Shown: piece by piece, positions 452 through 20,939 of the stretch
Position numbering within the stretch: position 1 is the first letter of the stretch
Layout of the letters: each line of letters opens with the position of its first letter
Assembly (NCBI GenBank): GCA_039630575.1
Contig: JBCNUW010000027.1
Location: 275-21,213 of the forward strand
DNA: 20,939 nucleotides
Direction of reading: 5' to 3'
Source of the DNA: Candidatus Hydrothermales bacterium
GTDB lineage: Bacteria; Hydrothermota; Hydrothermia; Hydrothermales; JAJRUZ01
Made by a program: the position numbers and the translations under genes
Notes under the pieces: generated by a model
What the model was told of the DNA's origin: nothing
Databases searched by the model: none
The model's input: the letters and a program-made list of their open reading frames with translations, nothing else

Positions 452-480
452 ATTATAATGAAAAAAAATAATTTTGTCAA
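452..480 (-). promoter_or_regulatory. Consensus sigma70-type promoter TTGACA-N17-TATAAT
   Basis: Plus-strand tgtcaa at 475-480 and attata at 452-457 read TTGACA and TATAAT on minus, with an exact 17-nt spacer, just upstream of the SD and ATG (431). Confidence 0.85.
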
Positions 481-3562: not shown

Positions 3563-3597
3563 ATTATAATATAATTCTTAAAATTATGTTTTTTCAA
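3563..3597 (-). promoter_or_regulatory. Possible internal promoter for HU-bS22-yfcE-priA
   Basis: TTGAAA (3597-3592)-N18-TATATT (3573-3568), plus an overlapping TATAAT (3568-3563). The AT-rich background makes chance matches plausible. Confidence 0.4.
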
Positions 3598-4525
3598 CTG
3601 ACGGTATAGAATAAACATAATTTTTGCCCTTCTTTTTTGCTTCAAAAAGAGCCTTATCTGCAATAACAAGTAATTTTTCAGGTTTATCAGTTGATTTTGG
3701 AAAACTTGATACACCAAAACTTGCTTTTATATTAAAATTAAGATTTTCTTTTATTTTTATACTATGTTCTTCTAATTCTTTTCTTATAGTGTTTGCTATT
3801 ATTACTCCTTCTTCCAATGTGGTTTTAGGGAATAAAAAGGCAAATTCGTCACCACCGTATCTTGAAATTACCGCATAGGAGTAATCAGTTAAAAGAAAAA
3901 AATTCTTTAGAAATTCACCTACCTTTTGTAAAACTTTACCTCCAACAAAGTGACCATGAATGTCGTTTATCTCTTTAAAATTGTCAAGATCCATAATAAT
4001 TACCGTTACTGGATAGTTGTTTTTATCACTCAAGAATTTTCTAAGTGAAACAAGAAAGTATTTTGAATTAGAAAGTTCAGTTAAATCATCTTTTGTAACA
4101 AGCTCTTCTACTTTTTCTTGGAATTCTATTAACTCAATTAAAAGAGAGATTACATAAAAATATAAAATTTCATCTTCACATAGAGATTTACTTAATGTTC
4201 CAATAAAACCAATTGCTTTGTCGTAGCTGAAAAAGGGGAAAATAATCGCGTTCTCCAATTCATCTATAATCAAAGAAGAATGATAATAAGATTCTTTAAA
4301 AGGAATATCTCTGTAGTTTATTTCCTCAGGTAAAAAATTTTTTTCAACATTAGATGATTCAATCAACACATATTTATTTTTGATTTTTTTGTAAAGAAAG
4401 AAGGATGTTTTATTTGAAGATATTAATTCTTTAAGTACCATTTTGGTTTTATTTCTGTCCCATAAGTAATTAAGCACATAAGGAAGGTTAGAAATTAAAA
4501 TTTTAATTCTATCGTTTTCCACCAT
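3584..4525 (-). CDS. GGDEF-domain dinucleotide cyclase with a degenerate GAF-like N-terminus; atypical (Hypr-like) nucleobase pocket
   Basis: DDLT..N, MDLDNFKEIND.HGHFVGG (Gly where Asp is canonical), RYGGDEF, ASFGV, ADKALFEAKKKGKN; no RxxD I-site. N-terminal AIIFPF..DKAIGFI is GAF-like. Confidence 0.9.
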   Translation of the reverse strand: MVENDRIKILISNLPYVLNYLWDRNKTKMVLKELISSNKTSFFLYKKIKNKYVLIESSNVEKNFLPEEINYRDIPFKESYYHSSLIIDELENAIIFPFFSYDKAIGFIGTLSKSLCEDEILYFYVISLLIELIEFQEKVEELVTKDDLTELSNSKYFLVSLRKFLSDKNNYPVTVIIMDLDNFKEINDIHGHFVGGKVLQKVGEFLKNFFLLTDYSYAVISRYGGDEFAFLFPKTTLEEGVIIANTIRKELEEHSIKIKENLNFNIKASFGVSSFPKSTDKPEKLLVIADKALFEAKKKGKNYVYSIPSVEKT

Positions 4526-6593
4526 AGATTGGTATCACCTTTTTATTGTTCACAACAAAAAAATCATCAATTAATTCTATATTTTCAAGTTTTTCAAATT
4601 TTAACATTTTATCTTTATTAAGCTCTTCAAGTTCTAAATATCCGATGTATGAAATTGTAAAATTCTTATTTTTTATTTTAAAGGTTTTACAGTTTAAAAG
4701 TAAATCTTTTAGATTTTTTTCTTTTACTTCTTCCTCTATTTCAATAATATTTGAATTTATAATAAGATTAGTTAGACTACCTATATCAAGTAGAATAGTA
4801 GAAGAGTCGGGAAGTTTAACTTCAGAGAGTATATACGCTAAATTAGGTATAGGACCTTGAATGTCGAAGTCTCCAAAGGAGTTGAAAGAAAGGTATATAT
4901 CCTTTTCTAATTTACCAGAGAATATTCCAATACCAAGTCTAAAGAGACTTTTTAAAGGGATATCTTTTCCTAAAACATCCGGAAAGAATCCCCTATATTC
5001 AGGATAATGTTTTCTTATGAATTCCTCAGACTTTTCCAGTAATTCAATTGCACATAGTATTGCTCTTTCAGTAGCTTTTTCCTCTGGTTTAATTAGTAGT
5101 TGATCTGAAATTGCTTTTTGAAATCTCATCTTATGACCACTTAAAATAGTTTCCTCAAAAATTTCCTTATATAGTTTGTTTGAATTTTCTGCAAAAAAGG
5201 AAATTCCACCGTCACCTGTTTCTTTTACAGGAAAACCTCCATAGGAGGAAATGGAATTCTTTATTACTTCTTGAAATTTTTTCTTTATAGATAGTTCCTT
5301 TTGCGCATTAAAAAGAGCAATTGACATAAAGGTTGATCCTCTTATATCGTAAACAAGAACAGAAATGACTTGTTTGTTTTTATTTATGAAGTCCTTTAAT
5401 TTTTGTGGCTCGTCAATTTTTACTTTTATTCTTTTTAAATTATTTAATTTTATATATCCCCCCTTTGGAACTAAGGAGAAATAGATGAATTGGCTATTTC
5501 TTTTTTCATCTTCATAGAGATCTTCGTAGGGTTTTACAAAAATTTTTCTTTCTAAAAGTTTTAGTTCAAAAAGCTTACTTAAAGTCTCTTTTATAAACTG
5601 AACATTTTTTAAATAAAAATCTAAAATTTTGATGTCTACTCCCAAAATTTTTCTCTCAAGAAAATTCTCAAAATAAGGTGAACTTTCACCCTTAAAAATT
5701 TTATAACCCTCAGCAAAGATAAATTTTAAGTCTTTTTCAATATCGTTAAAATTAAGATTTAATTTTTCATAAGTTTTGTATAATTTTAAAACATAAAATA
5801 TGTGATTTTCAGGTAAAATATTAACAACAATTTTTCTTTTTTCACTTTGAATAGTTTTTTCTTTTAAAGTTACACCTACAAATCTTAATATTTTTGTAAA
5901 TTCTCTGCTTAATTTATCAGCAATTTCTGTATTTTTTTCCTTCAAAATTTCTTCCCTTACTTCCTTTATTTTTTCATCAAAGAATTTAAGTATTTCTTTT
6001 TTTATTTCCTCTGAGTTTTCTAATTTTTGTATTTTATTCTTACTTTCTTCTAATAATTTGTAAATTCTTGGATTCCATTTTGTCATTTTTTTATAAATTT
6101 CCTTTTCAGTTTCGTTAAATTTTTCCATAAGTTTAAATCTATGAAGTTCAAAAATTAAAAAAGTAATAAAAATAGTAAAAAGGTTTATAGAAAGATCCTC
6201 TTTGTTGAGTATTTCACCTACTGAGGTAATGTCCAGGAACTCAAAATTAGGATTAACCTCTAAAAAATTATCCCATTTAGTTTCGAATTTTTTTTTATTG
6301 CTATAGACTTTTCTTGATATTTTGAAAAAAAGCAAATCAATTATTTCTCTGTATAATCCCTTTAAATCTTTTTTGTATTCTTGATATATTTTCTTTAAGT
6401 TTTCAAAATCTTTTAAGTTTTCAAGGTCAAAAATTATTGCTGGTGTTCTGAATTCCTTTTGAAATTCAGTAATTAAATTTTTACATTCTTCAGATAAAAC
6501 CTCAGAAACATAATTTTCAAGGTCTTCAATAAATTTTAGTGGTTTTAAAAGAGAATAGGAGTAAATTATGGATTCAATTAATCCCTGTTCCAA
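4509..6593 (-). CDS. Large protein with a C-terminal class III adenylate/guanylate cyclase-like domain and a ~400-aa helical N-terminal region
   Basis: VLVYDIRGST (D416), GGFPVKETGDG (K457, D461), A..AILCA, RLGIGIFSG, FDIQGPIPNLAYIL (D577, N584, Ile at the usual Arg). TTG start 7 nt after pilT. Confidence 0.75.
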   Translation of the reverse strand: MEQGLIESIIYSYSLLKPLKFIEDLENYVSEVLSEECKNLITEFQKEFRTPAIIFDLENLKDFENLKKIYQEYKKDLKGLYREIIDLLFFKISRKVYSNKKKFETKWDNFLEVNPNFEFLDITSVGEILNKEDLSINLFTIFITFLIFELHRFKLMEKFNETEKEIYKKMTKWNPRIYKLLEESKNKIQKLENSEEIKKEILKFFDEKIKEVREEILKEKNTEIADKLSREFTKILRFVGVTLKEKTIQSEKRKIVVNILPENHIFYVLKLYKTYEKLNLNFNDIEKDLKFIFAEGYKIFKGESSPYFENFLERKILGVDIKILDFYLKNVQFIKETLSKLFELKLLERKIFVKPYEDLYEDEKRNSQFIYFSLVPKGGYIKLNNLKRIKVKIDEPQKLKDFINKNKQVISVLVYDIRGSTFMSIALFNAQKELSIKKKFQEVIKNSISSYGGFPVKETGDGGISFFAENSNKLYKEIFEETILSGHKMRFQKAISDQLLIKPEEKATERAILCAIELLEKSEEFIRKHYPEYRGFFPDVLGKDIPLKSLFRLGIGIFSGKLEKDIYLSFNSFGDFDIQGPIPNLAYILSEVKLPDSSTILLDIGSLTNLIINSNIIEIEEEVKEKNLKDLLLNCKTFKIKNKNFTISYIGYLELEELNKDKMLKFEKLENIELIDDFFVVNNKKVIPIYGGKR

Positions 6594-6600
6594 AAATTTT

Positions 6601-7749
6601 CTATCTTGCTGAAGGTAATTTTTCTTTTATCATCTGTTCAAGTTCTTCAGGGTTATGTGAGAAGGATACAGCAGTTTCAAGGGTAATTTTTCTTTCCATG
6701 TAAAGTTTAAAGATTGATTGGTTCATAGTTTGCATTCCATATTTTTGCGATGCTTGGATCACTCCGTAGACCTGATGTAATTTGTTATCCCTTATAAGGG
6801 CTCTTACAGCTGGAGTTGCTATTAGAACCTCACAGGCTAGTACTCTTCCTCCTCCAACTTTTGGTAAAAGAGCCTGGGTTATAACTCCAAGTAGAACAAA
6901 TGCAAGTTGAGCTCTTACTTGTTGCTGTTGATGCGGAGGAAAGACATCAATTATTCTATTTATTGACTCTACAGCTGAGTTTGTATGGAGTGTTGCAAGT
7001 GTAAGGTGTCCTGTTTCGGCTATAGTTAAAGCTGCTGCTATTGTCTCATAATCTCTCATCTCACCAATCATTACAACATCAGGATCCTGCCTTAGTGCAT
7101 ATTTAAGTGCATTCTTAAAACTTTTAGTATCACTTTCTACCTGTCGTTGTGAAATAAGTGCTTTTTTGTTCGCAAAGAGGTATTCTATAGGGTCTTCTAT
7201 TGTTATTATATGGCACCTTCTCTCTGAGTTTATTTTATCTATTATTGCTGCTAAAGTTGTTGATTTTCCGCTACCTGTTGGACCTGTCACAAGTACAAGT
7301 CCCTTGGGTCTTGATGCAAGATCTGCAATTACCGTTGGTATACCAAGTTCTTCAAAACTTCTTATCCTAAAAGGTATTGTTCTTATGGCTATTGATACAG
7401 TTCCTCTCTGCTTATACACATTAGCTCTAAATCTTGAAAGTCCAGAAATTCCAAAAGAAAAATCACATTCCCATTCTTCCTCAAACTTTTTCTTGTGCTC
7501 ATCTCTCATAACTGAATAAGCTAGTGCCTGAGCCTGCTCAGGAGTTACAGGAGGGTAAGAAGAAGGAACAAGAACCCCATCAATCCTGAACATAGGAGGA
7601 GAACCAGCAGAAATATGAAGATCAGTTGAACCTCTCTGAACCATTTCCTGCAAAAGTGAAATCATCTGAACTTTTGTTTTTTTATCCTCTACTTCAGTCT
7701 TTACCTCTGTTTTTTTAAATTCAACCTTTTTTGGATTAGTTTCATCCAT
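6601..7749 (-). CDS. pilT: Type IV pilus retraction ATPase
   Basis: STDLHISAGSPP, GPTGSGKSTT, TIEDPIE, LRQDPD..GEMRD, AETGHL...TLHT, AVRALIRD (AIRNLIRE motif), GMQTM. Confidence 0.96.
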   Translation of the reverse strand: MDETNPKKVEFKKTEVKTEVEDKKTKVQMISLLQEMVQRGSTDLHISAGSPPMFRIDGVLVPSSYPPVTPEQAQALAYSVMRDEHKKKFEEEWECDFSFGISGLSRFRANVYKQRGTVSIAIRTIPFRIRSFEELGIPTVIADLASRPKGLVLVTGPTGSGKSTTLAAIIDKINSERRCHIITIEDPIEYLFANKKALISQRQVESDTKSFKNALKYALRQDPDVVMIGEMRDYETIAAALTIAETGHLTLATLHTNSAVESINRIIDVFPPHQQQQVRAQLAFVLLGVITQALLPKVGGGRVLACEVLIATPAVRALIRDNKLHQVYGVIQASQKYGMQTMNQSIFKLYMERKITLETAVSFSHNPEELEQMIKEKLPSAR

Positions 7750-7764
7750 TTTTAAAAATCTCCC

Positions 7765-7791
7765 TAAAAAGAGGGTTTGAACCTCTCCTTA
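7765..7791 (-). repeat. T-arm-like hairpin copy 3 (terminator/attenuator-like): TAAGGAGAGG-TTCAAAC-CCTCTTTTTA
   Basis: Up to 10-bp stem (2 G-U) with a TTCAAAC loop, starting at the pilB-2 stop. The 3' arm contains a U5 run, and the pilT SD GGGAG (7764-7760) follows directly. Confidence 0.7.
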
Positions 7792-9537
7792 TTCTTCTCC
7801 TGCAGCTGTTACCCTTAAAACTTCTTCAAGGGTTGTAATTCCCTTTTTAATTTTTATTATCCCGTCCTCTCTTAGAGTATGCATTCCCTCTTCTCTTGCT
7901 ACCTCTCTTATTTTATCCGATGTTGCGTTGTTTAAAATCATTTCTCTTATCCGAGGAGAAATTGGCATAACTTCATATATACCTATTCTTCCTTTATATC
8001 CTGTATTATTACAGACCTCGCAACCTTCACCTCTATAAAATTTTATACTTGAAATTTCATCTTTTGGAATACCCAACTCAATTATAAGTTCAGGATCATA
8101 ATTGACTTCCCGTTTACATTTCTGACAGATCCTTCTTACAAGTCTCTGTGCCTGAATTAATATAACCGAGGAAGAAATTAAATAGGGTTGTATGCCAAGA
8201 TCAACTAATCTATCTATTGTTGTTGGAGCATCGTTTGTATGGATTGTAGAGAAAACAAGATGACCGGTTAAAGCAGCTCTTATTGCTATTTCTGCTGTTT
8301 CTGAGTCTCTTATTTCTCCTACAAGTATCACATCTGGAGATTGTCTTAGAAAGGCTCTTAAAGCTGAAGCAAAGTCAAGGTTGACTTCCCTGTTTACCTG
8401 CACTTGATTTATGCCCTCTATGTTATATTCTACTGGATCTTCTATCGTTATAATTTGTCTGTCAGGTGTATTAATGGAAGAAAGTGCTGAATATAGGGTT
8501 GTAGTTTTTCCACTACCTGTAGGACCTGTTACAAGTATTATACCAAATGGGGAATTTATAGCTCTTAAAAATCTCTGTAAGTCATTCTCTTCAAATCCTA
8601 AAACTCTAAGATCTAGTGAAAGTCCGGATTTATCAAGAATTCTCATTACTACCTTTTCTCCGAATATAGTTGGAACTACTGAAACGCGAAAGTCTATAAT
8701 CTTTTCATTACTATTTTCATCTTTCAGTTTTAGCTGTATTCTACCATCTTGTGGTTTCCTTCTTTCGGAAATATCTAAGTTAGGACTACACATGAGTTTT
8801 ATCTTTGAAACTATTCCTGTAGAAAGCCTATTAGGTAAATCAGCATAAACTTGTAAAACACCGTCTATTCTAAACCTTATTCTTAAAACTCTCTCAAAGG
8901 GTTCAATATGAATATCTGAAGCCCTTTTAAACACAGCATCTTTTATTATTTTGTTAACTAATTTTGTTATATGAGTATCCTTACTTAATTTTAAAATTTC
9001 TTTTTCATCAAGAGCTTCCTCATATTCTTCTAATGCTATTTCCTCTATATCAAAAGGTGTAGCTTCTTCCTCTTTTTCTTTTATCTCCTCTATTTTTGCT
9101 ATTTCTTTTTTATAACCTGGATAAAATCTTTCTAAAGCTCTTCTTAGAGAGGATTCGGCAGCTATAACAGGTTCTACATCAAGTCCAGTAATAAATCTTA
9201 CATTTTCTAAAGCTTGAATATTTGAAGGGTCTATCATCGCTAAAAATAAAATATTTGCTTTTCTTGCCAAAGGTAATACTTCATAATGATAGCAAATATC
9301 AGCTGGAAGAAGTTTCAAAACTTCTTCAGGTATCTTTATATCTGTAAGATCCATAGCAGGAACACCAAGCTGTTTAGCCAAAACCTCAACAAGTTGTTTC
9401 TCTGTTATATATCCAAGCTCAACAAGGGTTGAGCCTAATCTTTTTCCAAATTCTTTTTGTTTTTTTAAAGCTTCTTCAAGTTGTTCCTTGGTTATTAAAC
9501 CATACTTTATAAGAAGTTCACCAATTTTAAGCGGCAT
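7789..9537 (-). CDS. pilB: Type IV pilus extension ATPase PilB/GspE (copy 2) with MshEN N-terminus
   Basis: KIG..L...G.I...QL..AL..Q / RLG..L..LG tandem motif, ASDIHIEP, PQDGR, GPTGSGKTTTLY, RQSPD..GEIRD, TGHLV.ST.HTN, CQKC/CEVC zinc site. Confidence 0.93.
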   Translation of the reverse strand: MPLKIGELLIKYGLITKEQLEEALKKQKEFGKRLGSTLVELGYITEKQLVEVLAKQLGVPAMDLTDIKIPEEVLKLLPADICYHYEVLPLARKANILFLAMIDPSNIQALENVRFITGLDVEPVIAAESSLRRALERFYPGYKKEIAKIEEIKEKEEEATPFDIEEIALEEYEEALDEKEILKLSKDTHITKLVNKIIKDAVFKRASDIHIEPFERVLRIRFRIDGVLQVYADLPNRLSTGIVSKIKLMCSPNLDISERRKPQDGRIQLKLKDENSNEKIIDFRVSVVPTIFGEKVVMRILDKSGLSLDLRVLGFEENDLQRFLRAINSPFGIILVTGPTGSGKTTTLYSALSSINTPDRQIITIEDPVEYNIEGINQVQVNREVNLDFASALRAFLRQSPDVILVGEIRDSETAEIAIRAALTGHLVFSTIHTNDAPTTIDRLVDLGIQPYLISSSVILIQAQRLVRRICQKCKREVNYDPELIIELGIPKDEISSIKFYRGEGCEVCNNTGYKGRIGIYEVMPISPRIREMILNNATSDKIREVAREEGMHTLREDGIIKIKKGITTLEEVLRVTAAGEE

Positions 9538-9539
9538 AG

Positions 9540-11390
9540 TTATTCAATTTTTGTTTCTTTTAACACCTCTTCAGGTGTAGTTATTCCTTTTAAAATTTTT
9601 CTTATGCCTGTTTCTCTCAAACTTATCATTCCTTCCTCTAAAGCAGCTTTTTCAATCTCAAAAGTGGGGGCCTTTTTTAATATGAGTTCTCTAATCTTTT
9701 TCGTAATAGGCATTACCTCAAATAAGCCTGTTCTTCCTTTATAACCTATTCTAAAGCATTTTTCGCAGCCTTTTCCTCTATAAAATTTAATACCTTTAAA
9801 TCTATCAGGGTTATCAGGTGAAAGATCAAATAAAACAGACTCATCTGGGGTGTATTCTTCCTTACAGTTTTCACAAATTTTTCTAACAAGTCTCTGGGAA
9901 ACTACCACAAGAAGGGTGGAGGCAATCAAAAAGGGCTCAATTTCCATATTTATTAAACGTGTTATAGTAGCCGCTGCAGTATTGGTATGAACTGTAGATA
10001 AAACAAGGTGTCCTGTAAGTGAAGCTCTTATTGCTATCTCTGCTGTTTCAAGATCACGGATTTCCCCAACCATTATGATATCAGGGTCTTGTCTTAAAAA
10101 AGCCTTTAGTCCTGCTGCAAAAGTCATTCCTACACTTTCCTTCACTTGAACCTGATTTATACCATGGAGAGTAAATTCTACCGGATCTTCAACAGTTGAA
10201 ATATTAACATCTATTGAATTAAGCTCCTGAAGGGCAGAGTATAAAGTTGTAGTTTTCCCACTACCTGTAGGTCCTGTAACAAGAATTATTCCGTTTGGAT
10301 TTTTTAAAATTTTTCTAAATATCTTCAGAGATTCCTCTTCAAAACCTAAAACGTCTAAACTAAGCTCAATTGCGGACCTATCAAGTATTCTCATTGCAAC
10401 CTTTTCTCCATATACAGTTGGAATAACGGCAACACGCACATCTATTCTCTTATCACCCATTTTTAGTCTAATTCTCCCATCCTGGGGTTTTCTTTTTTCC
10501 TCTATTTTCATTTTTGATACACCCTTTATTCTGGCAACAATTGGTCTTATTAATTTTACATCTCTTTTTAGAACTTCTTGAAGAACTCCATCGATTCTAT
10601 ATCTTACTCTGAGCTCTTTCTCATAAGGTTCGATATGAATATCTGAAGCTCTTCTTCTTATTGCTTCATAAAGAATTGCATTTACAATTTTTACAATGGG
10701 AGATTTTTCATCCTTTATGGAGGTAATATCTTCTGCTTCGTCCTCTACTTTTTCAGGTGCAAGTTCTATATCATCTCCGTACACAAGAATTTCTTCGATA
10801 CTTTGCTCTGATTCAGAACTCTTTATTTCTGCTTTATTTTTTGATCCCTCAATCAGTTCTTTTGTTTCTTTTCTTTCAATTTGAGAACTACCAGTTAACA
10901 CTTCAATACCCATATCTTCACTTTCAATTTTTGCAATTTGATCCATCATGTCTTCAATCTTGTAGTATTTTTTTATTGCTTCCTTAATAAAGTCTTCAAG
11001 AGCAATAAGTGGTATAACTTCAAATTTTGTTAAAAATCTTACATCTTCAATTGCAAAGTGATCTTCTGGATTAGCCATTGCCAAGAACAACTTGTTCCCC
11101 CTTACTGCCAATGGAACAACATCATATCTTGCAGCAACATGGGCTGGAATAAGTTTTATAACCTCATCTTGAATGCTTTCAAAATGTCTCTTTTTTGCTA
11201 CTGGCACGTTTCCAAATTGTTCAGATAGAACCTTTAAAATATCATCCTCTGTTGCATAACCTAATTCAAGCAATATTGACCCGAGTCTTTTTCCGTTTCT
11301 TTTCTGCAATTCAAGTGCTTCCTTTAGTTGTTCTTCTGTTATAACTCCTGCATCAATAAGCATTTCACCGATTCTTTTTATCCTTTTCAT
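9540..11390 (-). CDS. pilB: Type IV pilus extension ATPase PilB/GspE (copy 1) with MshEN N-terminus and a long acidic linker
   Basis: RIG..L...G.I...QL..AL..Q / RLG..L..LG tandem motif, ASDIHIEP, PQDGR, GPTGSGKTTTLY, RQDPD..GEIRD, CENC/CEKC zinc site. Confidence 0.93.
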   Translation of the reverse strand: MKRIKRIGEMLIDAGVITEEQLKEALELQKRNGKRLGSILLELGYATEDDILKVLSEQFGNVPVAKKRHFESIQDEVIKLIPAHVAARYDVVPLAVRGNKLFLAMANPEDHFAIEDVRFLTKFEVIPLIALEDFIKEAIKKYYKIEDMMDQIAKIESEDMGIEVLTGSSQIERKETKELIEGSKNKAEIKSSESEQSIEEILVYGDDIELAPEKVEDEAEDITSIKDEKSPIVKIVNAILYEAIRRRASDIHIEPYEKELRVRYRIDGVLQEVLKRDVKLIRPIVARIKGVSKMKIEEKRKPQDGRIRLKMGDKRIDVRVAVIPTVYGEKVAMRILDRSAIELSLDVLGFEEESLKIFRKILKNPNGIILVTGPTGSGKTTTLYSALQELNSIDVNISTVEDPVEFTLHGINQVQVKESVGMTFAAGLKAFLRQDPDIIMVGEIRDLETAEIAIRASLTGHLVLSTVHTNTAAATITRLINMEIEPFLIASTLLVVVSQRLVRKICENCKEEYTPDESVLFDLSPDNPDRFKGIKFYRGKGCEKCFRIGYKGRTGLFEVMPITKKIRELILKKAPTFEIEKAALEEGMISLRETGIRKILKGITTPEEVLKETKIE

Positions 11391-11407
11391 TCCTTATCTA
11401 TTTTATA

Positions 11408-12601
11408 TTAAACTTTATAGATCAGTTTTCGCAACTCATTCAATATAAAATGGGAACTTTTAAATTTTATCTCTTCTCTTTTACCTCTGAAAAGCTTTTT
11501 AAATACTAAAGTTTCTTTCTCATAAGAAATAGCAAGGTAAACTGTACCAACCGGTTTTTCTTTTGAACCACCTGTGGGTCCTGCTATACCAGAAATGGAA
11601 AGACCAAAATCAGTGTCAAACAGTTTTCTAACACTTTCAGCCATTTTCTTTACAACAGGTTCTGATACCGCTCCATAATTTTTGAGATCTTCCTCTTTTA
11701 CACCAAGAATCTTTTTTTTAATCTCATTTGAGTAGGCAATTACTCCGCCTATGAAATACTCTGAACTACCTGGAATATCTGTAATTCTTGAAGATAAAAG
11801 TCCTCCTGTACAACTTTCTGCTGTGCTTATTTTTTTCCCTTTTTCTTTAAGTAACCTTCCGACAACTTCCTCAAGTAATATAGGTCCTTCTGAAGAAATA
11901 TCATCCATAAATGTTTTATATAAAAAATCTTTTGTTTCATTAACTTCTTCTCTTTTCCCCTTTACACCCAAAATTACTCCACCTGTGTAAGGTAGAAAAA
12001 AGAGAAGATTTAAGTTTACCTTTTCTTTTAAAACATCTTGAATTTCAATTTCCTTTTTGAAAGGTAAATCAAAATATATAACTTTATGATCTTTTTTAGG
12101 TTCAAAATCCTTTAATATTTTCTCAAGGGAGTGTTCAAATTCATTTTTTGGACCTGGTAGTGAAAAAATTTTTTTCCCCTTTTTTTCAACTAAAAATGAA
12201 TGGGCTAATCCGATCTCATTTATATAAATTTTTGCACCCTTTGGAAAAAGTCCATATTTTTTATGCTCTTTTTCAGAAAGTAATGGTTCTCTTTTTTTTA
12301 AATCATTAAAAATGTCCTCTCTGAATACAAGCTCTATGTTAAAAAATTCTGAAATAGATTCTCTTGTAATATCGTCTATAGTAGGACCTAATCCTCCTAT
12401 GGTAAATAAAGTATCAGTTTTTTCTAAGCAAAAGGAAAGAGCCTCTTTAATAGATTCTTTTGAGTCTTTAGCTGTTACGTGAATTTCAACTTCTTCTCCT
12501 AATTCTCCTAACTTTTTAGCAAGATAATAAAAATTTGAATCGACTCTGTATCCGCTTAAAATTTCATTGCCTATGGTGATGCAAGATATTTTTTTATTCA
12601 T
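11408..12601 (-). CDS. cinA: CinA-family bifunctional protein (COG1058/MocF-like domain plus PncC NMN deamidase)
   Basis: GNEILSG...DSN, GGLGPT.DD.T, LPGP; C-terminal [40 protein letters not shown]. Confidence 0.93.
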
Positions 12602-13191
12602 GTAGGAGCCTTGCTTGAAAGATGTCTTATAACCATCTTTGCTATTTCTTTTAATGTTTCGAAAACTCCTTTTCCAATGGTGGCAACTGCTTCATAATAA
12701 GGTACACCATCTTTGTTTAAGTTTCTTTGTAGGTCTTCAATTGGAGCTGCATTTGGTAGGTCTCTCTTGTTATACTGTATTACATAGGGTATATCTTCAA
12801 TTTTTAATCCGTATGTTTCAAGATTTTCAAGCATGTTCTCAAAACTTTCAATATTTTCGTCCATTCTCTCGATCTGAGAATCAGCGACAAAGACTATTCC
12901 ATCAACGCCTTTTAAAATCAATTTTCTTGAGGCATTATAAAAGACTTGACCAGGAACTGTATAAAGATGAAATCTTGTTTTAAAACCTCTCACGTTGCCA
13001 AGATCTATTGGTAAAAAATCAAAGAACAAGGTTCTTTCCTGCTCTGTAGCAACAGAGACAAGTTGTCCTTTAAGATCTGGTGAAAGTTTTTCATATATGT
13101 ATTTTATGTTTGTAGTTTTTCCAGAAAGACCCGGACCATAATAAACTATTTTAACATTAATTTCTCTTGATGCGTAATTTATTAGAGCCAT
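12598..13191 (-). CDS. mglA: MglA small Ras-like GTPase (cell polarity/motility)
   Basis: [60 protein letters not shown]; very close to the Myxococcus/Thermus MglA pattern. Confidence 0.97.
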
Positions 13192-13197
13192 AATTTT

Positions 13198-13682
13198 TTA
13201 AGGTCCAAAAAGTTTATCAAGTTCTTCTTCAGCTTCTTTTAAAAAACTTTTATCAAAAACCTCTTTAGGTGGGGTAACTTTTAATTTTTCAAAAAGTTCG
13301 TCAAGTACATGTTCTAATTCCTGTGAAGCATGTTTTGTTCTAACTTTCACCAGTCCCAGAGTTGTTTTTGAATCAAACAGAACTGCAAGAATAACCCTAT
13401 TTGCTACAAGTGAAATAAATAAAGAATTTTTTTCTCCTTGATGGTAAAGAGAAGAAAAGTTTTTTTCTCCAATCAGTTCAGCAAGCTGACTTGTTGCACC
13501 GAAATCTGCTGCAGATAGTGTAGCAAAAGAAACAATATCAAGACCACTAATATCTCCAATTGAAGTTATAAGTTGTCCAGCTTTATCAATAAGCAAAACT
13601 GCATTTGAATTTGAAGTTTCCTTTAGCTTTTTCAGTATTGTCTCAACTTTTTTAAAACTTTCCTCAATATATTTATATTCAC

Positions 13683-13686
<4 letters not shown>
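13198..13686 (-). CDS. mglB: MglB roadblock/LC7-domain GAP for MglA
   Basis: LLIDKAGQLI, FATLSAADFGATSQLA.LIGE..F..LYHQGEK, FD..TTLGLV, acidic C-terminal helix ending LDKLFG; directly upstream of mglA. Confidence 0.94.
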
Positions 13687-16563
<2,877 letters not shown>

Positions 16564-16567
<4 letters not shown>

Positions 16568-17214
16568 GCTTTATTCCCCTTTATAACATTCAGTGGGTCA
16601 GAAGTTCCGATTCTTTCAACTCCCATCTCTATTAGGATACTTGCGAACCCAAAAGATCTGATTCCTCCTGATGCTTTAATTTTTACGCCATTTTTTAAAG
16701 ATTTTTTTATTATCCTGATATCAGAAAGCCTTACTCCCCTTGAAAGAAAACCTGTTGAAGTTTTAACAAAATTTGCTCCACCTTCACATACTAATTTTGT
16801 AGCTAGAGAAATCTCGTCTGCAGTCAAAAGTCCACATTCAATTATTACTTTTAAAATTTTTCCATTTGAAATCTTTGCTACCTCCTCTATTTCCCTTCTT
16901 ACTTCTTCATAGTTACCGTCCTTGAATTTTTGGATATTCATTACCATATCAATTTCATCGCATCCCAATTCAAAAAGTTTTTCAGTTTCCTTTTTTTTAA
17001 AGTCCTTATTTTTATAACCAAAGGGAAAATCGCAAACAGATATAAGTTTTATTTTTGTATTTTTGATAAGTTCTTTAACCTGTAAGACTCTGGAAGGAGG
17101 CACACATATTCCAAAAACTTTAAGTTCGATAGATTTTTCTACAAATTCCTTATATTCTTTCCAAGTTTTTTCAGGCCTTAAAAGGGTTGCCTCTATATAT
17201 TTTTCTATTTCCAT
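16564..17214 (-). CDS. deoC: Deoxyribose-phosphate aldolase
   Basis: TLLRP, FPFG, DEIDMVMN, LKVIIE, FVKTSTGF (Schiff-base Lys), IKASGGIR, RIGTS. Confidence 0.95.
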
Positions 17215-17229
17215 ATAATAAATTATAAC

Positions 17230-17835
17230 TTAAAGTTTAAATAGATAAAAAATTGTCCCGAAAATGTTTATTTTCTCTTTAATTTTATAATTTCTTGAAA
17301 ATTCCCTTATTTTTAAACCTAGTATACTCGACCTTAAAAAGTTATATTCTGGAAAAAAAATTGATAGTATATAAGTGAAAAAATAAATGTAAGGAATTAA
17401 AACAAAAGAAAAGGGAGTAGAAGGTCTAACCATTTCAAGAATGTATATTTCACCGCTATTTTTTAGAATTCTTCGTGTTTCTCTTAAAAATAATTCTTTC
17501 TGTTCTATGTTCCTCCAGAGAAAACTGCTCACAACATAATCAAAACTTTTGTTCTTAAAAGGTAAAAAGTTTGCATCAGCTCTAACATAAAAGATTTTTT
17601 TATTTAAAAGTCTTTTTTCAAGCATTTTTTTAGAAATTTCAATTGCAAAAATTTTTTTTACTTTTTTTCTTTTACTTAAATACATCGAAAGCTCACCTTT
17701 CCCTGCTCCTACATCGCAGATTGTACCTGATACCCTTTTTGACAAAAACCACCTTGAATAATGGTCTACTCCTAAAGAAAAAATAAGGTTAATTATGTCA
17801 TAAATTTTTGCTATTTTGTCGAATCTACTATTCAT
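17230..17835 (-). CDS. UbiE/MenG-like class I SAM-dependent methyltransferase (201 aa; start revised from 17964)
   Basis: MNSRFDKIAKIYDIINLIFSLG matches the UbiE/MenG N-terminus; also DVGAGKG, ADANFLPF...SFD, RN...L.E..RILK..G...ILE. ATG at 17835 makes an 8-nt ATGAATAG overlap with the pilD stop. Confidence 0.85.
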   Translation of the reverse strand: MNSRFDKIAKIYDIINLIFSLGVDHYSRWFLSKRVSGTICDVGAGKGELSMYLSKRKKVKKIFAIEISKKMLEKRLLNKKIFYVRADANFLPFKNKSFDYVVSSFLWRNIEQKELFLRETRRILKNSGEIYILEMVRPSTPFSFVLIPYIYFFTYILSIFFPEYNFLRSSILGLKIREFSRNYKIKEKINIFGTIFYLFKL

Positions 17836-18580
17836 TAACAAATATTTTATAAAATAAGTAATGATGGTTGGGGTATATAAGGTAGTATAAAAGGATTCCA
17901 AGAAAAAGAAAAGGTAAAAGTGGTAAATATCTATTTCCCCTTTTAAAAAGTAGAAATAAACCAACTAAGGAGCCTAAAAGAAAGGATAGAAAGAAAGTTA
18001 AAATTAAGTCAAACCCCCTTATATAGGCTGCTATTAGGGCAAAAACATAAGGATCTCCCTCACCTAAGGCTTCCTTTTTAAAAAAAACTGAACCAAGCCA
18101 TCTTAAAAGAATACCAAATAAAAAAGCTAAAAAGGAGTAAATTATTGACTCTATTAAATGATTGTTAACAGAGGAAATTATAAAAGCGACGTAAAGGGAT
18201 GGAAAAAGAATAACATCGTAGATGTATCCTGTCTCGTAGTCAATAAATGCCATTAACATTAAAGAATAGGTTAATAAAACTGTTTCAATCATTTTAACGG
18301 AAATACCAAACTTTTTATATGCTAAAAGGAATAAAAGTGCTGTTAAAAGTTCTACTAAGGGATATCTAAAACTTATTTTTGATTTGCAGAATCTACATCT
18401 ACCCTTTAGTAATATGAAACTTATTATGGGAATGTTATCATAGAATTTTATTTTATTTTTACAAACAGGACAGAAGGAAAATGGTTTTATTATTGATAGA
18501 CCCTTTGGTATTCTATAAATAACTACGTTTGCAAAACTACCGAAACAAAGACCTAAAATAAAGAAAAAAAAGTTATCCAG
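17828..18580 (-). CDS. pilD: Prepilin peptidase/N-methyltransferase (A24A); start extended from 18292, probable CTG start
   Basis: The frame stays open from 18292 up to a TAG at 18586-18584 and encodes GLCFGSFANVVIYRIP, SFCPVC, YDNIPIISF..LKGRCRFC...IS.RYPLVELLTA (PilD N-domain). The C-terminal part has FIDYE and LGEGD (catalytic Asp pair) and YLPLLPFL. Confidence 0.9.
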   Translation of the reverse strand: MDNFFFFILGLCFGSFANVVIYRIPKGLSIIKPFSFCPVCKNKIKFYDNIPIISFILLKGRCRFCKSKISFRYPLVELLTALLFLLAYKKFGISVKMIETVLLTYSLMLMAFIDYETGYIYDVILFPSLYVAFIISSVNNHLIESIIYSFLAFLFGILLRWLGSVFFKKEALGEGDPYVFALIAAYIRGFDLILTFFLSFLLGSLVGLFLLFKRGNRYLPLLPFLFLGILLYYLIYPNHHYLFYKIFVNE

Positions 18581-19862
18581 CAGCTAATACCCTGTTTTTA
18601 CCGCTTTCTTTTGCCTTATAAAGGGCTTTATCTGCTTTTTCAATTAGAGTCTTTCCATCTTCAGCATCATCAGGAAAAACTGCTACTCCTCCAGAAATTG
18701 TTAATTTTCCGCCTGGTTGTTTCTCTTCCTTAGGGAATTTTGTTTTTTCTATAATTTTTCTTATCTGGTCTCCATAAGTTAATGATTCAAACTTGTCTCT
18801 TCCAGGTAAAAGAACAACAAATTCCTCACCACCGTATCTTGCAGGAATGCCATAAACTGCTTCTGCTGTTTTCTTTAAAATTTTTGCAATCCCTCTTAAA
18901 AGCTTATCTCCCATTGGATGTCCATTTGTATCGTTGTATTTTTTGAAAAAGTCGATATCGAGCATGAAAATTCCAACTTTATAACCATCCTTTTTTGCTT
19001 TTATTAATTCTTTTTCTAATCTCTCCATAAAGTATCTTTTATTATAAATCCCTGTTAAACCATCTGTATCAGCCATTGTTTGTATCTTTTCGAGAAGCAT
19101 TGCTGAGTTAAGTGAAAGGGCTGTAAGTTCAGATATCATCTGTAGAGCCTCCATTGATGTTCTCAAAGCTTCTTCCTTTGTTTCTTTGACAGAGATACCC
19201 TGTATTTTTTCTTCCTTAATCCCTGACACAGCTACTACTCCAAAGGTTGTAGCATGGTAAGTAAGAGGAGAGATGATTTCATAATCTACACCAAAGGGAT
19301 CTGCAAGATAGGTTTCTGCAAGTCCATCTACCAAGGCATCTTGAAACATAGTATCTTTGTCCATGATGTACCTTTTTTTTGCTACATAACCTATGGGTCC
19401 CTCTCCAAGATTATAAACAAGATCACCTTTTTTAAAAGTTTCTTTTCCTGTTAATGTTTTATGTTCATAAAGAACATATTTAAGACCCTCTTCAGTTGGT
19501 GTAAAGTAATATACATTTTCAACATTTAATATATTCTTTGTTTGCTCTAAAACAAGATAAATGATGTCTTTTTCTTCCCTTAGTTCACTTAAGGCTCTTG
19601 CAAGGTTGATTACAGATTGTATCATCCTTTTTCTTTTAGAAAACATTAAATTAAGCTCATCAATTCTGTTTGTTAGTTCCTTTACCATATTTTCATGAGT
19701 ATCCCTTAGACCTTTTAAACGCTTCTCAAGTTCAGTAATTTTTTTATTTTTATCTTTTATTTTTCCTCTTAAATCAGAAATAATAATTAAAAAAATTATT
19801 AAAATCCCTAAAAATATAGTTATAACTAAATAAACATTTTCCCTTAAGAGTTCGTTTATCAT
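18573..19862 (-). CDS. Membrane-anchored diguanylate cyclase (TM helix, coiled coil, GAF-like, GGEEF)
   Basis: Hydrophobic VYLVITIFLGILIIFLIII, heptad-like charged segment, GEGPIGYVA/ISPL...TFGVV (GAF), DGLTG..N, LDIDFFKKYND.NGH..GD, RYGGEEF; no RxxD I-site. Confidence 0.92.
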   Translation of the reverse strand: MINELLRENVYLVITIFLGILIIFLIIISDLRGKIKDKNKKITELEKRLKGLRDTHENMVKELTNRIDELNLMFSKRKRMIQSVINLARALSELREEKDIIYLVLEQTKNILNVENVYYFTPTEEGLKYVLYEHKTLTGKETFKKGDLVYNLGEGPIGYVAKKRYIMDKDTMFQDALVDGLAETYLADPFGVDYEIISPLTYHATTFGVVAVSGIKEEKIQGISVKETKEEALRTSMEALQMISELTALSLNSAMLLEKIQTMADTDGLTGIYNKRYFMERLEKELIKAKKDGYKVGIFMLDIDFFKKYNDTNGHPMGDKLLRGIAKILKKTAEAVYGIPARYGGEEFVVLLPGRDKFESLTYGDQIRKIIEKTKFPKEEKQPGGKLTISGGVAVFPDDAEDGKTLIEKADKALYKAKESGKNRVLAAG

Positions 19863-20939
19863 TTAAACCTCTTATAAAGTCTATTCTCAACTTCTTTCAA
19901 TTTATTATAAACTTCATTTTTTAATTTTTCAAAATCATTTTCACTAACTGGGATTTTATTTTCAAAGAGACTTTTTTGAACTAATTCATAGCTTTTTGAT
20001 CTTTCCAATCCTTTTTTTATGAAGTAATATAAAAAGCTTTGCGAGAAAAGTTCTTTTTCATATTTCATTAAGTTTTCTCTTAATCTATCTTTGTTTATTA
20101 CTAAATTTTCCAGCATATGAATCATCTTATCTAAAATGTAAACTGTTATATGAGATAAGTCAGGGAAAATTATTCTCTCTACTGATGAGTGAGATATATC
20201 TCTTTCATGCCACAGTACTGCATTTTCAAGTACTGGAAAAAGATTCCCTCTTAAATATCTTGAAAGACCACAAATTCTCTCCGAAATAATTGGGTTTTTC
20301 TTATGAGGCATACTGGAAGATCCCTTTTGACCTTTTTCAAAGGGTTCACTTAATTCTTGAATTTCAGTTCTTGATAAAAGCCTAATTTCTGTTGCAATTC
20401 TCTCAAGAAAAAGTCCTATTAAAACTAAAGAGAAAATAAAAATAACGTGTCTATCTCTTGGAATTATTTGAGTTGAAATAGGTTCAACCTTTAGACCCAA
20501 TTTCTTTAAAACAAATTCCTCAACTTCAGGTGGAATATGTAAATAATTTCCAACTGACCCTGAAAGTTTACCAAAGGATACCTCTCTTAACGCCTCTTTT
20601 AATCTTTTTTCATTTCTTTTAGCCTCAGATAAATAACTTAAAAATTTATGAGAAAGTGTTATAGGTTCAGCAAACATTCCGTGAGTTCTTCCTGCCATGA
20701 AAACACTTTTATTTTCCTCTATTTTCTCTAAGATTACGTCCTCTAATTTTTTTATTCTTTCTAAAACTATTTTTAGTGTTTCTCTCATTTGGATAGAAAG
20801 GGTGGTATCTAAGAGATCTGAAGATGTAAGTCCATAGTGAATATAAGTTGATAACTCCTTACCTACTTTTTCCTCAAGTACATCGACGAAGGCAGCTACA
20901 TCATGATTTGTTATTTTTTCTCTTTCTTTAACTTCTTGA
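19859..20939 (-). CDS. purB: Adenylosuccinate lyase (5'-truncated by the window edge)
   Basis: The frame is open past 20788 to the edge (TNHDVAAFV, IHYGLTSSDLLDT). Also GRTHG..AEP, STQIIPRDRH, GSSSMPHKKNP, WHERDISHSSVER. Confidence 0.96.
   Translation of the reverse strand, partial: QEVKEREKITNHDVAAFVDVLEEKVGKELSTYIHYGLTSSDLLDTTLSIQMRETLKIVLERIKKLEDVILEKIEENKSVFMAGRTHGMFAEPITLSHKFLSYLSEAKRNEKRLKEALREVSFGKLSGSVGNYLHIPPEVEEFVLKKLGLKVEPISTQIIPRDRHVIFIFSLVLIGLFLERIATEIRLLSRTEIQELSEPFEKGQKGSSSMPHKKNPIISERICGLSRYLRGNLFPVLENAVLWHERDISHSSVERIIFPDLSHITVYILDKMIHMLENLVINKDRLRENLMKYEKELFSQSFLYYFIKKGLERSKSYELVQKSLFENKIPVSENDFEKLKNEVYNKLKEVENRLYKRFK

Follow-up and report, generated by a model that had tools for sequence, protein, structure and literature searches.

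A 20.9-kb stretch of DNA (hereafter the window; ~30% G+C) from a hot-spring bacterium of the uncultured WOR-3 group contains two tandem type IV pilus (T4P) extension ATPase genes, a pilus retraction ATPase gene, and a pair of putative nucleotide-signaling genes. All long open reading frames (ORFs) of the window are on the minus strand. In the direction of transcription, the five genes (3584–11390) read pilB1-pilB2-pilT-cyc694-GGDEF_B. The two extension ATPase paralogs, PilB1 (9540–11390, minus strand; 616 amino acids, aa) and PilB2 (7789–9537, minus; 582 aa), each begin with an MshE-type cyclic-di-GMP-binding motif recognized by the model NF053729 (PilB1 residues 6–58, 11217–11375, minus; PilB2 residues 4–56, 9370–9528, minus). 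The retraction ATPase gene pilT (6601–7749, minus; 382 aa) is followed by cyc694 (4509–6593, minus; 694 aa, TTG start), which codes for a helical N-terminal region and a divergent class III cyclase-homology domain (residues ~400–620, 4734–5396, minus, identified with Foldseek). The last gene, GGDEF_B (3584–4525, minus; 313 aa), codes for a shrunken GAF-like N-terminal domain and a GGDEF domain of the Hypr clade. Its Gly196 codon (3938–3940, minus) occupies the nucleotide-specificity position, equivalent to PleD Asp344 and GacA Ser348.

An initial annotation of this DNA had proposed a larger system, in which pilD, mglB-mglA, both pilB genes, pilT, the cyclase-like gene, and two GGDEF genes might connect up to three nucleotide signals, together with a polarity GTPase, to the pilus motor. 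The genes that it named are all present on the minus strand, and six housekeeping genes interleaved among them (a UbiE-like methyltransferase gene, deoC, a 92-aa ORF, ligA, recR, and cinA) had gone unmentioned. The comparisons below show that an old pair of a cyclase-like gene and a Hypr-type GGDEF gene has been joined to a duplicated pilus motor operon in one order. We tentatively take the five-gene block, and not the 16-kb run, to be the functional unit, with the pair functionally linked to the pilus motor, a reading that falls a little short of probable.

Synteny of the five-gene block

Gene order was compared in five other genomes of the window's family (f1) and five genomes of a second family in the same order (f2). 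The block is contiguous and co-oriented in all five of the other f1 genomes and in three of the five f2 genomes; the two f2 genomes with no match for cyc694 are 67% and 75% complete. The entire 20 kb is syntenic across f1, including the housekeeping genes ligA, recR, deoC, and priA, and conservation within f1 is therefore uninformative. Between the families, both flanks of the block have changed, with pdxJ and a 180-aa ORF upstream and ligA directly downstream in f2. Eleven adjacencies of the window could be evaluated in f2, of which five are broken and six are kept, namely, the four junctions of the block and two of mglB-mglA-cinA. The order of the block is kept even though f1 and f2 proteins have only 34%–35% identity for cyc694 and about 40% for GGDEF_B. 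PilT is 79%–95% identical in relatives, and its gene is always directly upstream of cyc694 in both families. This is the pattern that the initial annotation had put forward as a check, with the pilB-pilB-pilT-cyclase-GGDEF series staying together while its flanks shuffle between f1 and f2.

Searches of 30 genomes from ten sister families, with the single protein and with a 43-member profile, detected no member of the cyc694 family, apart from one weak profile match (23.6 bits, in a frame of 1020 aa). A second, f2-like cyc694-GGDEF pair was observed on a 3147-base contig (L010/L023) of one genome in the window's genus. That genome is listed with 8% contamination, and the copy may therefore belong to another organism. 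In one f2 genome (L016), two prepilin-type N_methyl genes (4494–5033 and 7341–7886, both minus) are encoded on the strand opposite to pilB1, 1.5–5 kb upstream of it.

A divergent class III cyclase-like protein

No match to cyc694 was found in Pfam (E ≤ 0.01) or NCBIfam, and none of the 33 distant family members that were scanned reached a Pfam cutoff. Few proteins belong to this family; 1.84 billion proteins included 47 representatives at E ≤ 0.001. An AlphaFold2 model constructed with 43 sequences (predicted local distance difference test score, pLDDT, 85.7; predicted template modeling score, pTM, 0.79) produced 106 Foldseek matches at E ≤ 0.001. CyaC, Cya2, and CyaB were the top matches, and Rv1900c was also identified (probability 1.00). 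Template modeling (TM) scores by target were 0.66–0.74 for the top matches, and the top ranks were occupied entirely by adenylyl or guanylyl cyclases. Residues ~400–620 of the model have a class III cyclase fold, so the label of class III cyclase-like given in the initial annotation is borne out by structure prediction despite the blank Pfam and NCBIfam results.

A family profile compared with the Protein Data Bank (PDB) matched CyaB alone, with an E value of 0.095 when built from 8 sequences and 6e-4 when built from 43. The alignment pairs DIRGST with DIRGFT and K..GDGG with K..GDC, and it covers only the first half of the domain, so catalytic residues in the second half of cyc694 are placed by motif only. 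Both members of the metal-binding Asp pair, D416 (in DIRGST) and D461 (in GDGG), are present in 42 of the 43 family members, as is K457, which aligns with the Lys of the CyaB K..GD motif. Arg418, Asn571, Asp577, and Gly580 are each invariant (43/43), and position 593 is Arg or Lys in 40 of the 43. In class III cyclases, a Lys/Asp pair specifies ATP as the substrate; D577 was put in this pair by motif resemblance, without alignment to a solved cyclase. The pocket is strongly constrained, metal binding, and probably purine binding, with a catalytic arrangement that is non-canonical.

The protein shares its fold, the first metal-Asp motif, and K..GD with the class III cyclases CyaC (1WC0–1WC6), Cya2 (2W01), CyaB (3R5G), and Rv1900c (1YBT). 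It differs from them in lacking a PF00211 match and a conserved Asn-x-x-x-Arg, in its ~400-residue helical N-terminal region, and in having an obligate GGDEF neighbor. No recognizable fold was identified in the N-terminal 395 residues, for which structure matches had TM scores of ≤0.30, a PDB profile search returned coiled-coil noise, and a feature search gave no usable match. The cyc694 gene overlaps GGDEF_B by 17 nt. A complex prediction for cyc694 residues 300–694 with GGDEF_B scored 0.01 against a mark of 0.32, a value that weighs neither for nor against binding.

GGDEF_B and its placement among Hypr enzymes

Hypr GGDEF enzymes were reportedly first defined by Hallberg et al. in 2016 (PNAS). 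The GGDEF domain of GGDEF_B (122.3 bits) has an RYGGDEF active site but reads GHFVGG at the specificity site, with Gly196 where canonical enzymes have Asp. This Gly is kept in 8/8 f1 and f2 orthologs, and GHFVGG aligns with the GHLVGS of 6d9m. That structure is the Hypr GGDEF domain of Geobacter metallireducens GacA, in which Ser348 permits ATP as well as GTP (PMC6456294), and it is the closest solved relative of GGDEF_B (E = 1.2e-27 versus 2.4e-21 for the next). It was also the top structural hit for GGDEF_B, with a Z score of 24.2, a root-mean-square deviation of 1.7 Å, and 35% identity. The Z score is tied with that for canonical PleD, and the fold alone therefore does not separate Hypr from canonical enzymes.

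Natural enzymes with Ser or Thr at position 348 are described as carrying GGDE[F/Y] exclusively (the "Goldilocks" rule), while in Asp enzymes that motif position is D or E in a ratio of 57:43 (PMC6456294). The Ser/Thr rule was confirmed, together with an S-to-D reversal, in Bd0367 (PMC9140294). Like GacA, GGDEF_B has GGDEF rather than GGEEF, which conforms to GGDE[F/Y], and a non-Arg residue at the cross-dimer site. This residue (GacA Tyr304) aligns with Ser154 of GGDEF_B, which is invariant in 9/9 orthologs; a Ser at this site is associated with mainly cyclic GMP-AMP (cGAMP) (PMC6456294). Unlike GacA, which is a Rec-GGDEF protein with Ser348, GGDEF_B has Gly196.

The GGDEF_B of this order is a shortened protein of 313 aa that lacks a REC domain and has replaced Ser with Gly. 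Comparison with REC-GAF-GGDEF partner proteins of other lineages using hhalign gave a probability of 100% from residue 92 on. No Pfam match to GAF was found in GGDEF_B. Its N-terminal model is a five-stranded alpha/beta domain, and the fold search with it was dominated by the GGDEF domain. Judged from its sequence, GGDEF_B belongs to the Hypr (GacA/GacB-like) clade, and the gene called an atypical GGDEF in the initial annotation does fall among proteins whose members carry the Hypr (cGAMP) signature.

The cyclase-like and GGDEF pair in other lineages

A scan of one genome per species identified 173 places encoding a relative of cyc694, and 80 loci were kept. By record title, these loci come from WOR-3, Stahlbacteria, TA06, Edwardsbacteria, Cloacimonadota, and UBP2, plus many metagenome-assembled genomes titled only as "bacterium." Partner GGDEF genes were located by profile hidden Markov model. 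Of the 80 loci, 61 have a same-strand GGDEF gene with a readable active site no more than 1.5 kb downstream. One additional partner is cut by a contig end, and two of the 18 partnerless loci end within 900 nt.

The specificity site of the 61 partners is Ser in 48 (within GHLVGS, as in GacA), Gly in 13, and Asp in none, and the active-site motif is GGDEF or GGDEY in all 61. Only two other GGDEF genes occur in the 80 loci, and both combine Asp with GGEEF. A tree of the 63 GGDEF domains placed the partners in one clade apart from those two (support 100/98). The Ser/Gly label requires two changes on this tree, and the window's clade is on a long branch. All of the partners that were sampled (11/11) have a (REC-)GAF-GGDEF or GAF-GAF-GGDEF architecture. 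As a separate observation, many Ser-type partners (L025–L052 and others) read VDDNFGH, with Asp where canonical enzymes and GacA have a sugar-face Asn (GacA Asn339), making this a second altered position in their active site.

GacB of Myxococcus xanthus is described as a GAF-Hypr GGDEF enzyme (a GMP-AMP cyclase) whose GAF domain binds cAMP, activating the enzyme (bioRxiv 10.1101/600031). The partner GGDEFs share with GacB both the GAF-GGDEF architecture (11/11 sampled) and the Ser signature (48/61). They differ in that the cyclase-like gene is hard-wired upstream, an arrangement that the available passages on GacB do not describe for its cyclase. GGDEF_B itself departs further from GacB, with Gly for Ser, a shrunken GAF, and no RxxD site. 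Neighbors of the pair in other lineages include YceG, RuvX, PyrB, a phosphoribosyltransferase, an amidohydrolase, an Na+/H+ exchanger, and a CBS protein. No neighbor other than the GGDEF partner is common to the lineages, and those that recur are lineage-specific housekeeping genes. Motifs, tree, and distribution together identify the cyclase-like gene and its Hypr-type GGDEF partner as an old, widespread, putative two-gene signaling module. No prior description of this pair in WOR-3, or of the five-gene block, was found among the titles and opening lines of abstracts in the literature.

Two PilB paralogs with MshE-type motifs

Both extension ATPases match T2SSE (469.7 bits for PilB1 and 465.7 bits for PilB2) and MshEN. 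Against the PilB model TIGR02538 (cutoff 675.65), PilB1 scores 669.8 bits, just below the cutoff, and PilB2 scores 719.4 bits, above it. The scores of both against the GspE model are lower than against the PilB model and are below the GspE cutoff. The two proteins are 49% identical and retain the Walker A, Asp-box, His-box, and tetra-Cys motifs. PilT scores 495.9 bits against the PilT/PilU model TIGR01420 (cutoff 319.1).

The MshE-type motif was detected with NF053729 (cutoff 38) at 75.3 bits in PilB1 and 77.4 bits in PilB2, in agreement with the MshEN domains noted on both PilBs in the initial annotation. A scan of the whole genome (80 and 81.4 bits) identified these two proteins as the only ones above the cutoff. 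The PilB1 motif consists of two 24-residue motifs and a 5-residue spacer, matching the published definition (PMC5013675). Where RLG is expected at the start of motif I, PilB1 has RIG and PilB2 has KIG. A tandem pilB duplication with a strong motif on both copies (72–83 bits) is confined to f1 and f2. Among the best PilB homologs from 12 genomes of families f6, f7, f8, f10, f11, and f12, eight are below the 38-bit cutoff and four gave no score with the motif model. The main PilB homologs of eight genomes from sister families (G014, G015, G016, G020, G021, G026, G030, and G040) were observed to have a degenerate MshE-type motif of 20–37 bits.

Both PilBs carry the full MshE-type motif and may be c-di-GMP receptors. 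In Vibrio cholerae, MshEN is reported to bind c-di-GMP with a dissociation constant of 0.5 µM and cGAMP with one of 330 µM, and binding of c-di-AMP was not detectable (PMC5013675). The two proteins resemble the MshE, PilB, and PilF receptors in having the 53-residue double motif at the N terminus of a PilB-family ATPase (PMC5013675, PMC11656802). They differ from the MshEN receptors described in those passages in occurring as two tandem MshEN-PilBs and in the Lys, rather than Arg, that starts motif I of PilB2. Two extension ATPases for one pilus are described in Acinetobacter baylyi, where PilB is accompanied by TfpB (PMC11656802). The organism studied here likewise has two PilB-family extension ATPases, possibly in one machine, but PilB1 and PilB2 are tandem paralogs specific to one order. 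Neither is a TfpB ortholog, with scores of 465.7 and 493.6 bits against a TfpB cutoff of 850. In the passages available from a 2024 review of PilB cofactors, no description was found of a cyclase-like or GGDEF gene encoded beside pilB or pilT (PMC11656802).

Nucleotide signaling and pilus genes elsewhere in the genome

The genome encodes six GGDEF genes (four besides GGDEF_A and GGDEF_B), one EAL gene, and two HD-GYP genes. A PilZ domain was not found in this genome, which is 94.7% complete. Six ordinary class III cyclases (PF00211) and five cyclic nucleoside monophosphate (cNMP)-binding proteins are encoded elsewhere. The remaining pilus machine is dispersed, with PilC on another contig and four prepilin-like genes on two further contigs; the window has no pilin gene.

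The two HD-GYP proteins were inspected at the Rxx(K/R) guanine-contact motif. The REC-HD-GYP protein, encoded on another contig of the same genome (L104, 426–1913, plus strand), reads RSYA, which is neither the c-di-GMP type (K/R) nor the cGAMP type (Q/N). The GAF-HD-GYP protein in L103 has the canonical RPYR. The signature of cGAMP-specific HD-GYP proteins is given as RxxQ/N (bioRxiv 10.1101/600031).

Other genes of the window

Transcription order in the window starts with a purB-like lyase gene (19859–20938, minus) that runs off the high-coordinate end. It is followed by GGDEF_A (18573–19862, minus), which codes for a membrane-anchored canonical GGEEF diguanylate cyclase (GGDEF 154.5 bits) with RYGGEEF and the canonical Asp (in GHPMGD) at the specificity site. 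The prepilin peptidase gene pilD (17828–18571, minus; Peptidase_A24 match) is next, and then the genes for the UbiE-like methyltransferase (17230–17964, minus), deoC (16564–17214, minus), the 92-aa ORF (16289–16567, minus), ligA (14272–16296, minus), and recR (13683–14279, minus). The genes mglB (13198–13686, minus; Roadblock domain), mglA (12598–13191, minus; a small GTPase with a P-loop and YTVPGQ), and cinA (11408–12601, minus) separate these from the block. Genes for HU, a metallophosphoesterase, PriA, and a DUF7948 protein are located downstream of GGDEF_B.

The ORF list gives pilD as 17828–18292. Its frame is open to 18571 (247 aa) and includes the Cys-rich N-terminal part, so the apparent 280-nt gap after GGDEF_A is coding. 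The frame has no ATG, GTG, or TTG before 18292, and the start is probably a CTG that overlaps the stop codon of GGDEF_A (CTGCTGGATAAC) or an ATT. The closest relative (L011) has the same arrangement, and in three others pilD starts at a TTG further upstream, inside the end of GGDEF_A.

MglA and MglB set T4P polarity in Myxococcus. The MglB of the window scores 90.6 bits, under the model cutoff of 200. Three f2 genomes were searched for mglB-mglA-cinA. In two of them these genes are on a contig other than that of the pil block and are followed by genes other than pilB or pilT; the third had no match. The mglB-mglA-cinA unit is kept in both families independently of the pil genes (window 11408–13686, minus; L101 7312–9581; L102 7977–10241). 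It joins the MglAB GTPase module to CinA, a competence/damage-inducible protein of the nicotinamide mononucleotide deamidase family. The sequence surrounding the f2 block was covered for 9.4 kb on the upstream side and 3.6 kb on the downstream side in L016, and for less in L017 and L018. Within it, pilD had no match and GGDEF_A had no ortholog-level match, its 31%–35% identical domain matches overlapping GGDEF_B.

Promoter-like sites are not enriched in the window (85 versus 78 ± 9.1 in shuffled sequences). Terminator-like sites number 16 versus 9.1 ± 2.8 in shuffles, and all four on the coding strand are inside genes. The sole perfect match to a sigma-70-like promoter in the window (12/12) was observed at 452–480 (minus), just upstream of the DUF7948 gene, which starts at 431.

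Interpretation and alternative explanations

If the pair acts on the pilus motor, cyc694 would receive or generate a nucleotide signal and control GGDEF_B. In other lineages, by analogy with the cAMP-activated GacB, this control probably runs through a cNMP that is read by the GAF domain of the partner; here it may instead run through the GAF-domain remnant or by contact. GGDEF_B would make a cyclic dinucleotide, which could be c-di-GMP, 3′,3′-cGAMP, or both. The MshEN domains of PilB1 and PilB2 would read this dinucleotide, shifting the balance between extension and PilT-driven retraction. The genes of the block could be co-transcribed.

Several observations weigh against this reading. Just 4 loci of the 80 have pilB and pilT adjacent to the pair, and these 4 belong to the loci most similar to the window; elsewhere the pair sits among pyrimidine, ruvX/mltG, or transporter genes. 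Since its neighbors outside this order are unrelated, position alone is weak evidence for its target, and the pil linkage, seen in one order only, counts as a single evolutionary event. PilB-like proteins with a strong motif also occur in families f4 and f10 without the cyclase/GGDEF pair. The transition-state Asn and Arg of class III cyclases are arranged as N-x-x-x-R. At the positions that we take to be the corresponding sites in cyc694, placed by motif, residue 584 is Asn in 19 of 43 members and Arg in 17, residue 588 is never listed as Arg, with Leu, Ile, Phe, Thr, Val, or Tyr accounting for at least 42 of the 43, and no canonical transition-state pair is present. The PF00211 scan of the genome misses cyc694, while six other genes pass its cutoff, and cyc694 may not be a cyclase. 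In GGDEF_B, Gly196 departs from the Ser/Thr of Hypr enzymes, and no test of Gly at this site was found in the literature passages on these enzymes. The central GAF region is also lost, the alignment being confined to the final two strands of GAF and the linker helix, and an RxxD inhibitory site, as read from the sequence, is absent upstream of the GGDEF domain. The MshEN domain is reported to bind cGAMP ~660-fold more weakly than c-di-GMP (PMC5013675), and T4P motility in M. xanthus was only mildly affected by cGAMP, which was judged not to be a major regulator (bioRxiv 10.1101/600031).

One alternative is that the genes are only historical neighbors. The pair would then be a self-contained, genome-wide module acting on other targets, and the PilBs would read the total c-di-GMP pool of the six GGDEF genes. 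This is a serious rival because the linkage is a single event, the contexts of the pair elsewhere are unrelated housekeeping genes, and spacing is uninformative. The run at 3584–19862 had been described as co-oriented and tightly coupled, which is accurate (gaps and overlaps of −17 to +54 nt) but no more than the norm for this 1.89-Mb genome, in which 79% of neighboring ORFs are on the same strand, same-strand neighbors are a median of 1 nt apart, 71% of gaps do not exceed 20 nt, and seven runs have 20 or more genes. Coupling and co-orientation therefore say little about a single system here. The further GGDEF genes, the EAL gene, and the two HD-GYP genes of the genome also fit a shared pool. 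However, the block outlasted the rearrangement of both its flanks, with cyc694 only 34%–35% identical and 5/11 of the adjacencies around it broken. The PilBs are the sole confident MshE-type receptors in a genome where no PilZ was found, and the pilB duplication with strong motifs on both copies coincides with the linkage. We regard this alternative as less than likely, though it has substantial weight. The larger system of the initial annotation has in its favor that all of its genes are present, co-oriented, and tightly spaced, that the whole arrangement is kept within f1, and that MglA has the TVPGQ hallmark. That conservation extends to the housekeeping genes, six of which are interleaved in the run, and is uninformative; in f2, mglB-mglA-cinA is on another contig and is not followed by pilB or pilT, and neither pilD nor GGDEF_A was found in the stretches fetched around the block. 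The linkage of MglAB, PilD, and the canonical GGEEF enzyme to the motor genes is thus not conserved, so synteny gives no backing to the proposal that a single motor answers to three signals and a polarity GTPase. Gene order largely refutes the larger system, and we consider it very improbable.

The roles of the two proteins in the pair may also differ from those proposed above. As a pseudo-cyclase, cyc694 would bind a nucleotide without cyclizing it and serve as a sensor or scaffold for its partner, and GGDEF_B would be an ordinary diguanylate cyclase with relaxed specificity. This agrees with the unconserved Asn-Arg pair and the lack of a PF00211 match, with the loss of the GAF pocket region in a lineage that has kept the pair and its 17-nt overlap, and with the availability of six ordinary class III cyclases and five cNMP-binding proteins for normal cNMP signaling. 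It is at odds with the constraint on the metal Asp pair, the Lys, Asp577, Arg418, and Arg/Lys593 (40/43) across 43 members that are otherwise ~20% identical, which is more typical of an active site, and with the full GAF domains kept by partners elsewhere. We consider a pseudo-cyclase unlikely, though by no means negligible. A more specific form of the linked pair and motor is a private circuit for a two-motor pilus, in which cyc694 would drive a Hypr GGDEF of the Gly type whose product is a purine dinucleotide of a non-canonical or mixed kind, for example 3′,3′-cGAMP. PilB1 (RIG) and PilB2 (KIG) would have diverged to read different dinucleotides, and the cell would thereby select which extension motor engages. 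We offer this as an improbable proposal; if true, it would give the pair found across WOR-3 its first physiological output and would be the first case in which a dinucleotide decides between pilus motors.

Significance of the linkage

Control of extension ATPases by c-di-GMP through MshEN, Hypr GGDEFs, and a cAMP-activated GAF-Hypr GGDEF are already known, and the signal source in known systems is usually one of many unlinked cyclases. Here, a candidate signal generator (cyc694), a candidate converter (GGDEF_B), and candidate receivers (the two MshEN-PilBs) are side by side and co-inherited across two families. To the pair as it occurs in other lineages, this window adds a setting among pilus motor genes, two MshEN-PilBs in tandem, and a reduced partner of the Gly type. 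A link without function would make this a lesson in how little can be read from close gene spacing in the compact genome of a thermophile. A functional link would make the block a compact and testable model of local second-messenger signaling at a molecular motor, would show the effect of a natural Gly at the GGDEF specificity site, and would provide the first candidate output for the cyclase/Hypr-GGDEF pair of WOR-3-related lineages.

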